Made by a program: the position numbers and the translations under genes | The notes under the pieces: generated by a model | Database searches by the model: none | What the model saw: only the letters and a program-made list of their open reading frames with translations | Told to the model about the DNA's origin: nothing | Part shown: positions 1,140 through 37,159 of the stretch, piece by piece | How positions within the stretch are numbered: position 1 is the stretch's first letter | How the letters are laid out: the number at the start of each line of letters is the position of its first letter | From: a virus | Virus record (IMG/VR): IMGVR_UViG_3300045988_152007 | Coordinates: 1 to 60,474 of that record | Strand: one strand, 5' to 3' | Length of the DNA stretch: 60,474 nucleotides

Positions 1140-1540
1140 CAGCATATCGGATGAGGCACTCGCCGTCCGAGTCTTCTACTAAGGGCATATGACCTCCTGT
1201 TCGATGTAATTTTTTTACCTATACTATATGCCACTAATACAATTGGTCCTTTTGTATTTTAATACCAGTGGCGGAATTTAAACCGCACATTAAGAATAAA
1301 CAATAGTATGGTAGCTATGACCCGGTTTCATGGTCGCTTTACAGGATGGCAGTCAAAAGTTGTTACCATTCGCCTAAAATCTCCATCCAAACCTCAAATG
1401 AGGAAAACATCTAAGCCGTATCATTCGGATTTCCCGACTCATTTCGACTTGCGGATTTGTTACCTACCGCCGTACTACCTGCTAACCTTTCTATGTTAGC
1501 CCCGACCCGTCTGTTCAACTGCCGTTAGCTACTATTGTTT
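1140..1540. ncRNA. unassigned GC-rich non-coding block with several hairpins (e.g. GCGG-AATTTAAA-CCGC); candidate structured RNA
   Basis: GC content far above flanking coding DNA; no credible ORF; lies between two tRNA genes. Confidence 0.2.
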
Positions 1541-1594
1541 AATGGTGCCGGTGGCGGGACTCGAACCCGCATGGTGTTGCCACCGAGGGATTTT

Positions 1595-2332
1595 CTTACT
1601 ACTCTATGTCACCATAGCCACATTTTTGTGTTGTAGTCTGGAATACGTCTTTATCATATGCACGACTTGCACTTAGATAGTTGGTATATACTCTCTACAC
1701 ATTTATTTGGAACAATTTTTTCCACGATAAGAAGATGTTTTTGCATGACAATTTGGGCATAATAATTGGAAATTATCTAATTCATTATTAAAATGATTTC
1801 CATCTTTATGATGAAGTTCTAAAGGAATTGGTTCTCCTAACCATTCGGTTAATCCACAACATTCACATTTGTACTCTTTATAACCTTCATCAAGAAGTTT
1901 TTTTCTTACTTTATTACTCTGTATATCAATACTTTTTTCTAAGTATTCTAACAAAGATAATTCATGTCCATTGGGTTTTGACAATCCTTTACAACCTTGA
2001 TTTCCAGCATATTCAAGACCAAGCTTTTTTAATACTGGATTAATTGTTTTAGGATTACAACCCAATTCTCTTGCCATTTGAGCTTTAGTTTTACCTTCAG
2101 TAATCCATTGCTCAATTTCTTCTTTGCGTTCTAAAATATCAGTTCTCATTTATATTACCTCTCTTTCATTATTACTTAAAAATTAAAAAAGGTATTTTAA
2201 TGAGTGTCGTCCAATTTTTTAGAATGTGTTCCAAAACTTAGCACGGCGTTCTCTTAGCCATTCACCGTTTTAGCCAACTTCTGCTCTAAGAGTTTCCTCT
2301 TAGGCACTCCATTTTAACGTTTGCTAAGTCAA
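1595..2332 (-). mobile_element. group I intron (738 nt) in tRNA-Leu anticodon loop, carrying an HNH homing endonuclease
   Basis: 5' exon ends in U and the intron ends in G; P7-like CAGACTA near the 3' end; ORF 1703..2149 lies inside. Confidence 0.65.
1703..2149 (-). CDS. HNH homing endonuclease (intron-encoded), N-terminal HTH
   Basis: ORF track 148 aa; motifs CECCG...ELHHKDGNHFNN...CPNCH. Confidence 0.8.
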   Translation of the reverse strand: MRTDILERKEEIEQWITEGKTKAQMARELGCNPKTINPVLKKLGLEYAGNQGCKGLSKPNGHELSLLEYLEKSIDIQSNKVRKKLLDEGYKEYKCECCGLTEWLGEPIPLELHHKDGNHFNNELDNFQLLCPNCHAKTSSYRGKNCSK

Positions 2333-2465
2333 AAGTCCCTTGTGTCTACCATTCCACCACACCGGCAAATAAACTATATTAATTAAATCAAGACTCAATT
2401 TTGAAAAATAGCAATTCATTTTAGGTGAACTTTCAAAAGTAAATTTGCTGCGTGAGCCTTACGCC

Positions 2466-2540
2466 TGGCACCGGCTCTCAGAGTCGAACTGAGACTTGCT
2501 GATTTAGAGTCAGCTGAGCTAACCGTTACCCAAAGCCGGA
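2466..2540 (-). tRNA. amber suppressor tRNA, anticodon CUA (reads UAG); U1:U72 mismatch and G73 resemble tRNA-Gln identity
   Basis: Acceptor TCCGGCT/AGCCGGT, D-stem with G-U pairs, anticodon stem GCTGA/TCAGC, loop CTCTAAA, T-arm CTCAG-TTCGACT-CTGAG, G73, CCA encoded. Confidence 0.7.
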
Positions 2541-2559
2541 ATATATATACAAGACAGTT

Positions 2560-4040
2560 TAATAAAGTATCTTCTTATGAACCAAAAACATATGATTATC
2601 TTTAATAAAAATTTGCTGAAACTGTCTTAGAGAAATTATCCTAACTTCTCTTTATCTTGTAAATATATTATACTAAATAATTTTTTTAAAATCAAATTAT
2701 TCAGTAGAATATATTTACAAAAATTAATATATCCAATAGGAATAAACTACACCATAGCCACTAACCATTTATAGGTCGCCTCTATGCCTGCCCACGCCAC
2801 TAAGTACTTCAGCTTACCTCATTCATTAGCTATTGGAATATATTAAATTTTTGACCTACCATTAAACTTATAATACCTACCAATAGGAAGTAGAATATAC
2901 AGTTTTTAATAATAGGATTTTCATTCTATAATCTAACACAATAAATAATAACTCTACCTATTATATGTCTTTTTCGTAGTCCATTACGTCTCATTTTCCA
3001 CGCCTTTATATGAGAGACTACCAAGGATCTTATTTCCGCACTTGGTAATGGCTTTTTGGTATGTGAGCCACAAACATCCCTATTCAGCTTATTTATAGTG
3101 GAGAGCTGGCTGGTTTAGCGTATTGTTCCACTACCTAATTAACCAAGATTAGGACGCTAATCAAATATCTGATACGTATCAGTACGGTTTCCAGATATAT
3201 CATTTCACCGGACAACAGGCGAGTCAACCTTATTTGATTAGATTATGTAAGAACCCTACAGCCATAGGAGCAGGTTCCGCAGAGGCCTCTAACGATGTGG
3301 GATTGGCTACCCAATGAGGTTAATGTGCAAGCCACCGCCTATATTAGCATCTACATAATTCATTTCAAATAAATCATTTAATGATTTATTTTTAACAGGA
3401 AAGGAAATCGTAAGTTATTAAATAATAACTTAATTACAATTATACTACGGACCTTCGCCCTACTGGTTAATAATCTTCATTTTATTAGGTAAGTAAGGAA
3501 ACAAGTCTGAGCTATGAATAGCGACTTCATAACTTCTTGCCCCGGCCTAAGCCAAATCTCACAGAGGACTGACTACCTCTATCTTTCACCGACCATTCAG
3601 AATAGTATTACCAATAATTTTTACTAAATTAATATCATACTGTCTTGGCAAATTTCGGCTACTTGACCCTTGACCTTCTCTTATAGTAGATTACGCCACA
3701 TCAATTGCCAACTTCCTTATTGGTATTTCCTTGGTTTGGCAAGGTTACCAGCCTTACCCTAACAAGGATTCGGCATTGCTGTTAACAATGCTGTCTATTA
3801 TGGAAGCGAGAAGAACAGGACCTTAAATGCGATTATCCCAGCACAATCTCCCCGTAGCCGCATCCTTCGATGCGTGAATCTAATGTATCACTACAAAAGA
3901 TTTAGAAATAATTTCAAAGTATCCTTTGAATATTCCATTCTACAATCTCCGCCAGAGTGGATCGATTTCTCAGCCTTATGGTGTTAAGTCTGCACTGAGT
4001 TGTACTATAACCGTAATTAAATTATTATTTAATTTTTAAA
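2560..4040. other. 1.5 kb ORF-free block, AT-rich to 2950 then ~40% GC, with degenerate tRNA-like hairpins; probably transcribed from the promoter at 4060..4088
   Basis: No ORF >=60 aa; anticodon-like hairpin GCATTG-CTGTTAA-CAATGC near 3755; perfect palindrome CTGATACGTATCAG. Confidence 0.25.
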
Positions 4041-33289: not shown

Positions 33290-33440
33290 TCGACCAGACA
33301 GTAGGACTCGAACCTACAACACACGGCTCCCAAAGCAAATTTATAATTGCTGTATTGTCTTTCATAAATGGTGGAGCCAGAGGGAATCGCACCCTCGACT
33401 TTGAATTAAATTCAACGTTTTCCTACCATAAACTATGTCC
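33290..33440 (-). other. two tandem degenerate tRNA-like elements (T-arm plus acceptor 3' strand; one has anticodon-like loop ATTTAAT)
   Basis: T-loops TTCGAGT and TGCGATT with flanking stems but imperfect or absent 5' acceptor strands. Confidence 0.25.
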
Positions 33441-33542
33441 CCAAATATGATGGTTATAAAACTTAATCTAATGCAGGCATCAGATTAATAGAACGCTCTA
33501 TCAAGTTCTATGTTTCAAAATCGCTTATATCGGGAAAGCGAA

Positions 33543-35676: not shown

Positions 35677-36270
35677 TCTATTTTATTCTATTATATTTAG
35701 GAAATAAAAGTAATTAATTAGCTCACTTCGTCCAAATTTATTTTTTTCGACTGAGCTACAACCGCATATCGCATTTCAGAGGTTCCGGACCCTCCTGAGC
35801 AGCGTCACTCAAATAAGATTTTGTCACCTAATTTTTAAAACCTTATCAAAAAACAAACCAGTTTTTTAGCTGAACCTTTAACTCCCTTTCCGTTTTTACT
35901 TATATGTCAAGAAACAACCAAAGAGAAAGTATAAAAAGATAACATATAGGCAGATCATTTATAGACGCACACTATAAACTCGTCTTGCGGTCATGTTATT
36001 TTATAATCAAGTAAGTAATAACTTCAACCGCATTTCTTTAACTTAAATAACCTTTAATAATAGTCCTATATTAAATAATTAGTTATGGGCGACTATTATT
36101 TCCCAGCTTTAATTAATCCTTCTATTGGAATTGAACCAATACCTCCGCCTCTTTCAGGCAGCATGCTTCCATTACACCAAGAAGTAATATACATATGGCT
36201 TATTTACATAACGATGGAGCCACCAACCACCGAGCCTTGATTATAGTGAGTATAGCTACTACTTCACTAT

Positions 36271-37011: not shown

Positions 37012-37159
37012 TGGTGGGGCCGGTTGGATTCGAACCAACGATTTGGCAATTTGGCCCAAAATGTTAGGTTTGAACTCACATCTTTCTTGCGCATAGACTA
37101 TTTTACCATTTAAACTAATCTTGGATAAGTTGCCGGCCTTACCGCTTGGCCACGACCCC
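37012..37159 (-). tRNA. tRNA with Gln-like D-arm split by a 73-nt anticodon-loop insertion (37055..37127); anticodon CCA under the U/G boundary rule, UCA or UAA under others
   Basis: Exon1 GGGGTCG-TG-GCC-AAGCGGTAA-GGC-C-GGCAA-CT; exon2 CCAAA-TTGCC-AAATC-GTTGG-TTCGAAT-CCAAC-CGGCCCC-A-CCA. Confidence 0.45.

Follow-up and report, generated by a model that had tools for sequence, protein, structure and literature searches.

What is the 738-nucleotide (nt) insert that splits the anticodon loop of a tRNA-Leu(UAA) gene in a phage genome, and could such a gene still give rise to a working tRNA? The question is raised by IMG/VR virus record IMGVR_UViG_3300045988_152007, of which positions 1 to 60,474 (60,474 nt, hereafter the window) were analysed. 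The window looks like phage DNA: its proteins match PHROG families, and viral contigs of 100-200 kb from IMG/VR are closest to it at the DNA level. We conclude from sequence comparisons that the insert is very probably a group I intron that functions and that carries a homing-endonuclease gene; the kind of intron is known, its genomic setting here is new and its core is a variant. All genes in this part of the window lie on the minus strand, and the split gene is laid out as follows:

2366..2333, minus strand: 5' exon of tRNA-Leu(UAA), 34 nt, tRNA positions 1-34, last base U34 (ARAGORN call on the joined exons)
2332..1595, minus strand: intron, 738 nt, assigned to group I by covariation and nhmmer homology, with an apparently IC3-derived 'type A' core and an HNH gene in the P6 loop
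1595, minus strand: terminal G (omega G) before the 3' splice site, read from the sequence
1594..1543, minus strand: 3' exon of tRNA-Leu(UAA), 52 nt, from A35 to the encoded CCA (ARAGORN call on the joined exons)

A first-pass annotation, made from the letters of the window alone, had proposed that exons of 34 and 52 nt assemble into a tRNA-Leu, and ARAGORN indeed recognises in the joined exons an 86-nt tRNA-Leu(taa) whose variable arm is long and whose anticodon loop reads CUUAAAA. In its default mode, which makes no intron search, the same program finds 13 tRNAs in the window and none at 1543..2366; its intron-aware mode detects the same split gene, with the junction forced to a default position and the anticodon mislabelled. 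The exon base upstream of the insert is U34, the 3' end of the insert reads ...GUAGUAAG, and U34/A35 is the only junction that combines a 7-nt anticodon loop, a U before the intron and a G at its end. The exon-intron context is thus CUU/...G/AAAA, between anticodon positions 34 and 35, and the exon-exon junction of the joined tRNA is GGGACUU/AAAAUCCC. This agrees with the annotation's placing of the insertion at the classical cyanobacterial and plastid tRNA-Leu site and with its reading of a terminal U in the 5' exon and a terminal G (G1595) in the intron; its counts of a 738-nt intron and an open reading frame (ORF) of 148 amino acids (aa) were likewise reproduced, with their coordinates, on the minus strand. 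Because RNAalifold independently recovers the anticodon stem between the two exons, with compensatory changes across homologues, and because the same split gene recurs with differing exon sequences in dozens of independent contigs, the arrangement is not a product of chance.

Relatives of the intron were drawn from IMG/VR viral contigs with short conserved words taken from its non-coding parts, and bacterial genomes were scanned with one such word, a 21-mer from the P9b hairpin. The bacterial scan gave 84 loci, nearly all of them in gut or rumen Clostridia (including Ruminococcus albus 8, R. flavefaciens FD-1 and the R. callidus ATCC 27760 chromosome), and most of these are tRNA-Leu(UAA) genes with introns of 203-244 nt at the same site. 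From the viral contigs and the gut and rumen Clostridia genomes together, we parsed 107 homologous tRNA-Leu introns at U34/A35; a G stands before AAAA in all 107, which the parser demanded and which is hence not independent evidence. Rfam recognises the bacterial 'type C' introns, in which the P1 loop is small and P5 is a short ordinary hairpin, whereas 'type A', comprising the window intron, its phage relatives and three named Ruminococcus genomes, goes unrecognised.

A search of the intron with the Rfam group I covariance model, Intron_gpI (RF00028), had been proposed as a check of the group I assignment, and it gave no match, whether on the whole window at the gathering score or at E<=10 on 1400..2500. 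The 447-nt ORF was a possible cause of the miss, and relatives without an ORF were therefore sought; the model matched neither the ORF-less relative L002 nor six compact type A introns, and it also passed over eight phage introns of the more distant 'type B', which have a long P5 insert. As a positive control, it recognised bacterial relatives with 62.7 (L179), 62 (L156), 43.8 (L148) and 39.2 bits (L136). Since the model works on canonical relatives of the same intron family, its failure on the window reflects an atypical core and not a missing one, and Rfam was dropped as a direct test of the window and kept only as a positive control on those canonical relatives.

Homology to the canonical introns was instead examined with nhmmer. 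A profile of 22 introns with a canonical P5, containing no type A sequence, matches the window at the intron only, namely at 1705..1587 (3' core, E=1e-18) and at 2315..2233 (5' core, E=7e-4), and a profile of four Rfam-positive sequences alone still matches the 3' core (E=5e-13). The profile alignment spans ~116 nt of the window, well past the 21-mer that was used for selection, and the alignment of L179 to the Rfam model shows which blocks correspond to P1-P9.

The second line of evidence is covariation within type A. Alignment A1 holds 30 non-identical type A cores from which variable loop inserts were trimmed, and its pairs were counted on a structure written in window terms. Standard pairs form in 97.6% of 1679 cells, and 31 of the 56 pairs show changes on both sides; neither the observed paired fraction nor the covariation score was reached in any of 500 shuffles, and pairing falls to 27-42% when the 3' partners are slid by 1-3 columns. 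RNAalifold, which draws no pseudoknots, independently recovers P1, P2, P3, P4, P8 and P9 in addition to the anticodon stem. The core helices P3, P4, P6, P7 and P8 stand in canonical order, with P3 and P7 interlocked as in group I introns, and it is this covariation, together with the homology to Rfam-positive relatives, that supports the annotated group I intron. The helices and joining segments (J) of the window copy, from 5' to 3', are:

2332..2336, minus strand: P1 5' strand ACUU/U (exon positions -4..-1 plus intron nt 1); A1 columns 5-9/21-25, 98% paired, and RNAalifold
2306..2310, minus strand: internal guide sequence GGAGU (P1 3' strand); A1 helix 1
2286..2303, minus strand: P2 hairpin CUAAGAG-GAAA-CUCUUAG with a GAAA tetraloop; 7/7 pairs covary in A1
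2274..2278, minus strand: P3 5' strand GUUGG, followed by J3/4 CUAAA; pairs with 1684..1680
2263..2268, minus strand: P4 5' strand ACGGUG, followed by J4/5 AA; 100% paired with 2248..2243
2243..2248, minus strand: P4 3' strand CGCCGU; A1 pairing
2227..2235, minus strand: P6 5' strand UUUGGAACA; 9 base pairs (bp) with 1714..1706
1706..1714, minus strand: P6 3' strand UGUUCCAAA, overlapping the end of the ORF; 9 bp with the P6 5' strand
1689..1693, minus strand: P7 5' strand GAGUA, preceded by the conserved J6/7 AAAUGUGUAGA; pairs with 1645..1641, and is linked through L179 to the 'AGACUA' block of the Rfam consensus
1680..1684, minus strand: P3 3' strand CCAAC; with P7, forms the P3/P7 pseudoknot typical of group I introns
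1652..1679, minus strand: P8 hairpin with a motif like the 11-nt receptor, UCUAAG...UAUGA (CCUAAG...UAUGG in most relatives); covariation in A1 and RNAalifold
1646..1651, minus strand: J8/7 AAGACG; conserved in A1 and aligned through L179 with 'GAAGAUA' of the Rfam consensus
1641..1645, minus strand: P7 3' strand UAUUC; pairs with GAGUA at 1693..1689
1598..1637, minus strand: P9 three-way junction of ACUAC/GUAGU, P9a CACA-AAAA-UGUG (1630..1619) and P9b CUAUG-GUGA-CAUAG (1617..1604, GNRA loop); A1 and RNAalifold

At the 5' splice site, U34 (2333) pairs with G2309, and this U.G wobble is found in 30/30 sequences of A1. Four of the six P3 pairs covary, with the compensatory variants GCUGG/CCAGC, GGUGG/CCACC and GUGGG/CCCAC, as do three of the five P7 pairs; the pairs G1693-C1641 and A1692-U1642 of P7 are invariant in 30/30 sequences, which is compatible with a guanosine site. 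The P6 helix is present in all 34 distinct members, with unrelated sequences and closing loops that range from 10 to 562 nt. In P4 of L075, A-U is replaced by U-A in a compensatory manner, and compensatory changes also occur in P9 of L046, L094 and L114. Within P8, the motif UCUAAG...UAUGA is a candidate for the 11-nt receptor.

Three other pairings were considered in building this structure. The pair A53-U146 was first counted in P3, and belongs to P8 because column 146 covaries with column 167. A P7 made of CAGACUAC/GUAGU is ruled out both by the covariation of CCAAC/GUUGG, which puts the P3 3' strand upstream, and by that of GAGUA/UAUUC. The hairpin GUGUA/UAUAC that RNAalifold draws at the start of P7 (columns 125-129/137-141) shows no compensatory change and was not adopted. 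The element CAGACUA, which the first-pass annotation described as P7-like and near the 3' end, is present at 1640..1634, but it comprises the junction after P7 plus the P9 5' strand, the P7 helix being GAGUA/UAUUC.

The folding of P1 to P9 suggested in the annotation could be placed by comparison for P1-P4 and P6-P9. What had been overlooked is that this core has no P5 hairpin, whose place is taken by a pseudoknot between the following strands:

2323..2328, minus strand: pseudoknot 5' strand CUUAGC (intron nt 5-10), inside the P1 loop; pairs with 2258..2253
2253..2258, minus strand: pseudoknot 3' strand GCUAAG, in the loop closing P4 and followed by AGAA (a typical (G)AA J5/4); site of the canonical P5 hairpin

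In type C introns and in the intermediates L169, L214 and L163, P4 is followed by J4/5 (AA), a P5 hairpin of 3-5 bp and J5/4. Type A retains the J4/5 AA and J5/4 (G)AA flanks despite the loss of the hairpin, and the loop between these A-rich flanks is complementary to intron nt 4-10, three bases past the splice site. All seven columns of this helix covary in A1 (7/7), and 17 distinct Watson-Crick versions occur among 58 unique introns (e.g. CUUAGC/GCUAAG in the window, CCCUGAU/AUCAGGG, CAUUGAC/GUCAAUG, UGUAUUC/GAAUACA and UGUUUGU/ACAAACA). The mean helix length is 6.8 bp for cognate strands and 4.4 bp for non-cognate pairings. Judged by this comparative evidence, the pseudoknot helix is real. 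Its loop strand sits at the position of the P5 3' strand while its partner strand comes from beside the splice site, and its role would be that of a strand-swapped P5 which keeps the 5' splice site docked at J4/5. The change from P5 to pseudoknot, together with the large P1 loop, probably explains the failure of the Rfam model.

We would tentatively go one step further. The window intron could belong to a structural subclass of tRNA group I introns that has so far gone unrecognised, and whose hallmark is a strand-swapped P5 drawn from the intron's own 5' end. Such a subclass would have escaped detection by breaking the standard covariance model, would be widespread in tRNA genes of Ruminococcus and other Clostridia and of gut and rumen phages, would move between them with interchangeable endonuclease genes, and would provide the first documented introns in phage tRNA genes; we regard this whole proposal as a serious possibility, somewhat short of a probable one.

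The long P6 loop of the window intron accommodates the ORF, which the annotation had identified as an HNH gene:

2163..2158, minus strand: Shine-Dalgarno sequence GAGAGG, 8 nt upstream of the ORF, read from the sequence
2149..1703, minus strand: HNH ORF, 447 nt, 148 aa, ATG to TAA, in the P6 loop, with its final codons forming the P6 3' strand

The identification is supported by a match to PHROG HNH endonuclease families (E=1.6e-27) and by 51% identity over all 148 aa (E=9e-51) to hegA of phage T5, annotated as H-N-H endonuclease F-TflIV; Pfam HNH is matched below its cut-off. The motifs CECCG...HHKDGN...N...CPNCH are visible in the product, which also gives an N-terminal helix-turn-helix signal. 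The ORF contains no in-frame TAG.

The distribution of introns and endonuclease genes among the relatives bears on mobility. The five near-identical phage contigs keep the 738-nt intron wherever it is complete (L003, L009, L017 and L023, with L015 truncated); differences among their introns lie in loops or preserve standard pairs, and the HNH ORF is intact in the four complete copies. Other phage copies have no ORF (L002, 342 nt; L038, 256 nt; L045, 255 nt; L128, 268 nt), and in L082 and L084 the type A core is combined with a different HNH gene of 175 aa. In L020 (13199..14100, minus strand), the gene within a type A core is of the LAGLIDADG_2 family (Pfam E=1.7e-30) and is looped out between the P7 5' strand and the P3 3' strand on a perfect 12-bp stem, AUAAUAAUUUUA/UAAAAUUAUUAU, an insertion site that differs from the P6 loop used by the HNH genes. 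The more distant L085 has a canonical long P5 and not a type A core, and carries an I-HmuI-like HNH_3/NUMOD gene. Uninterrupted alleles also exist: L248, a related phage contig of 201 kb, has a tRNA-Leu(UAA) sharing 95.7% identity with the joined exons of the window, and the exact 20-nt intronless target occurs in at least 120 viral contigs. If an intron is acquired and lost through homing, such an exchange of ORFs and the presence of intronless alleles are to be expected. No cultured relative with the intron emerged from deposited phage genomes: blastn of the region against 50,697 deposited phage records matched the HNH part alone, and megablast of 25 kb against deposited phage genomes matched only tRNAs.

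Related introns also split other phage tRNA genes, in the viral contigs L027, L034, L054, L063, L069, L030, L065, L036 and L075; ARAGORN labels for these tRNAs are Arg(UCU), Met(CAU), Ser and Ile(UAU). Most of them have the long P5 insert of type B, with L075 instead having a type-A-like core; its Ile(UAU) intron lies at 34/35, as checked by hand. None of these introns was detected by Rfam.

We infer the splicing steps from standard group I chemistry. The precursor tRNA would fold into the core helices listed above, and free guanosine would attack after U34, held in a U.G wobble with the guide sequence GGAGU; G1595 would then occupy the guanosine site in P7, while P1 and the anticodon stem would hold the exons together, and ligation would give a functional tRNA reading UUA and UUG. 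The pairing of the loop closing P4 with intron nt 5-10 would tether the 5' splice site to its docking place, where the retained A-rich J4/5 and J5/4 correspond to the flanks that recognise the splice-site wobble pair in known introns. By analogy with other homing systems, the HNH enzyme would nick or cut intronless tRNA-Leu(UAA) alleles in mixed infections, and repair would copy the intron in.

Several observations weigh against a functional intron, and the main reservation is that the evidence for function is all comparative. The structure was hand-drawn from the very sequences that were then counted, in an alignment freed of its variable inserts, which favours it in the slide control, and the bacterial relatives were fished with a 21-mer from the P9b of the window, which inflates similarity there. 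P4 is nearly invariant in A1, so that covariation says little about it, and part of P9 is invariant as well. Rfam Intron_gpI matches neither the window nor any type A member tested (E<=1-10), and the window core is missing the P5 hairpin that is part of every textbook core. In the window copy, the first pair of the pseudoknot is an A-A mismatch, leaving 6 bp, P7 holds one G.U, P1 is only 4-5 bp long, and no P10 was found in the intron. Finally, the ORF product reaches only 18.3 bits against Pfam HNH, under the curated cut-off of 21.4.

Some of these features would be expected if the insert were a group I intron unable to self-splice, one which after the loss of P5 needs a protein cofactor; host or phage might supply it, or the HNH protein might serve in a maturase role. 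The absent P5 hairpin and P10 and the short P1 all fit such a dependence, as does the overlap of the ORF end with the P6 3' strand. We nevertheless consider it improbable, given that many Ruminococcus chromosomes and phage contigs retain compact copies of this core (237-256 nt) that have no ORF, so that an intron-encoded protein is no general requirement, and that the pseudoknot plausibly takes over the role of P5. The mismatch in the pseudoknot and the G.U in P7 might alternatively be read as decay, the gene being a relic, a tRNA-Leu pseudogene disabled by an intron that no longer splices, and splicing of the window intron is itself a deduction from comparison. Every core helix and both exons are intact, however, and the five near-identical contigs have kept the intron with only loop or pair-preserving changes and with the ORF intact in the four complete copies, which makes a relic very unlikely. 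To the idea that a free-standing HNH gene of the F-TflIV type simply landed in a tRNA gene, with no ribozyme around it, we give hardly any credence. It would account for the match to the ORF part alone in deposited phage genomes, and the hegA relatives in T5 and BF23 are free-standing beside tRNA genes; but the sequence around the ORF (~290 nt) is conserved, shows the covariation of a group I core and is found in relatives that have no ORF, and the A1 covariation and nhmmer homology already contradict it. A functional group I intron carrying a homing-endonuclease gene remains our preferred reading of the insert.

Among introns already described, that of cyanobacterial and plastid tRNA-Leu(UAA) ('Leu.3Ug', IC3; doi 10.1101/2020.01.27.920355) occupies the same site, CUU/intron...g/AAAA, with the same U-1 and terminal G, and like the window intron has a short P1 using anticodon-loop bases and the same order of core helices. 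In contrast, the window intron resides in a phage gene, has a pseudoknot with the P1 loop in place of P5, has a P9 three-way junction, carries a homing-endonuclease gene and is invisible to Rfam. The canonical introns of gut Clostridia (L179 of Massiliimalia massiliensis and L156 of a Selenomonadales metagenome-assembled genome, MAG) share the site, the P9b hairpin and a homologous J6/7-P7-P3'-P8-J8/7-P7'-P9 block with it, but they are ORF-less and 203-235 nt long, with P5 as a short ordinary hairpin and with a small P1 loop. The type A introns of Ruminococcus (L143, L162, L168) have the same architecture as the window intron, including the pseudoknot for P5, and are likewise missed by Rfam, differing in being bacterial, 237-238 nt long and without an endonuclease gene, with a P6 loop region of 11 nt.

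The Azoarcus tRNA-Ile IC3 intron resembles the window intron in its 3-4 bp exon-guide pairing and in combining a GAAA-capped P2 with an 11-nt receptor (putative in the window) in P8, and its J6/7-P7 and J8/7 sequences are presumably very similar to those of the window. The Azoarcus intron has a P5 with a second receptor for L9, whereas in the window P5 is absent and no partner was seen for the GNRA loop of P9b. Together with the homology to canonical tRNA-Leu introns, this resemblance suggests that the insert belongs to the bacterial tRNA (IC3) lineage.

With respect to its cargo, the window ORF resembles F-TflIV (hegA) of T5 and BF23 in its N-terminal helix-turn-helix and its association with tRNA genes, and the HNH part is 70-73% identical at the DNA level. 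The T5 gene differs in being free-standing, directly after two tRNA genes in the T5 tRNA cluster, and in encoding 227 aa with an extra C-terminal part, whereas the window gene lies inside an intron loop and ends in the P6 stem. Bacterial tRNA introns are mostly without endonuclease genes; an HNH-encoding group I intron has been described in a tRNA-Leu(UAA) of Bacteroidota (PMC13011429), which is like the window intron in gene and HNH cargo, comes from a bacterial genome, and is likened here by its description only. The MAG contigs L185, L195 and L199 may be of this Bacteroidota kind. The td intron of phage T4 with I-TevI is, like that of the window, a mobile phage group I intron with an endonuclease gene looped out of P6, but it is a subgroup IA2 intron within a protein-coding gene, and its enzyme is of the GIY-YIG type.

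A 2014 review (PMC3984707) placed all phage introns then known in protein-coding genes despite the many tRNA genes of phages, a survey of crAss-like phages found introns in core protein genes, and the literature that we searched mentions no intron in the tRNA genes of phages. The tRNA-Leu gene of the window, and dozens of viral contigs with tRNA introns, address this gap in what is known of phage introns. As standard tRNA finders and Rfam miss these introns, phage tRNA repertoires are under-counted, together with the inferences on codon usage and recoding drawn from them. The replacement of P5 by a pseudoknot near the 5' splice site amounts to a natural experiment in ribozyme architecture, and the kinship to a free-standing T5 enzyme among tRNA genes bears on how endonucleases and ORF-less introns combine into mobile introns.

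The window has at least 15 tRNA genes and a G+C content of 31%. As to the host, gut or rumen Bacillota are suggested by the bacteria in which relatives of the intron occur. A suppressor tRNA with the anticodon CUA (labelled tRNA-Pyl by ARAGORN) is found at 2466..2540 (minus strand), upstream of the split gene by 99 nt. Minus-strand ORFs of at least 100 codons add up to 11,373 codons with TAG as a stop and to 17,946 with TAG as a sense codon, and the window phage therefore probably recodes TAG.

Other noncoding RNAs were noted in the window and in related contigs. According to Rfam, a RAGATH-33 RNA (1417..1529, minus strand, 139.4 bits) begins 13 nt past its CCA, and the order tRNA-Leu to RAGATH-33 is also found in L003, L009, L015, L017 and L023; in L248, with the intronless allele, ~1.5 kb lies between the two. 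A full-length ROOL RNA (3430..4023, minus strand, 323 bits) stands within the tRNA cluster, as it also occurs in the viral contigs L009, L038 and L045. A second tRNA gene is also split: in tRNA-Trp(CCA) at 37015..37159 (minus strand), an insert of 73 nt separates positions 33 and 34 of the anticodon loop. It follows a U, as the last exon base, and has a terminal G, yet it is far too short for a group I core. A 140-nt split tRNA resembling this case is present in the related contigs L003, L015 and L017. The window further holds a tRNA-Phe with the unusual anticodon AAA (36116..36186, minus strand, ARAGORN) and a tRNA at 33372..33442 (minus strand) that is matched by Rfam and absent from the ARAGORN list. 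In the tRNA clusters of related viral contigs, at L068 6729..6831, L045 9868..9979, L087 637..765 and L037 6425..6701, Rfam gives sub-threshold matches to Y RNA-like (YrlA) RNAs of 31-51 bits and one above-threshold match to a permuted transfer-messenger RNA (63.8 bits).

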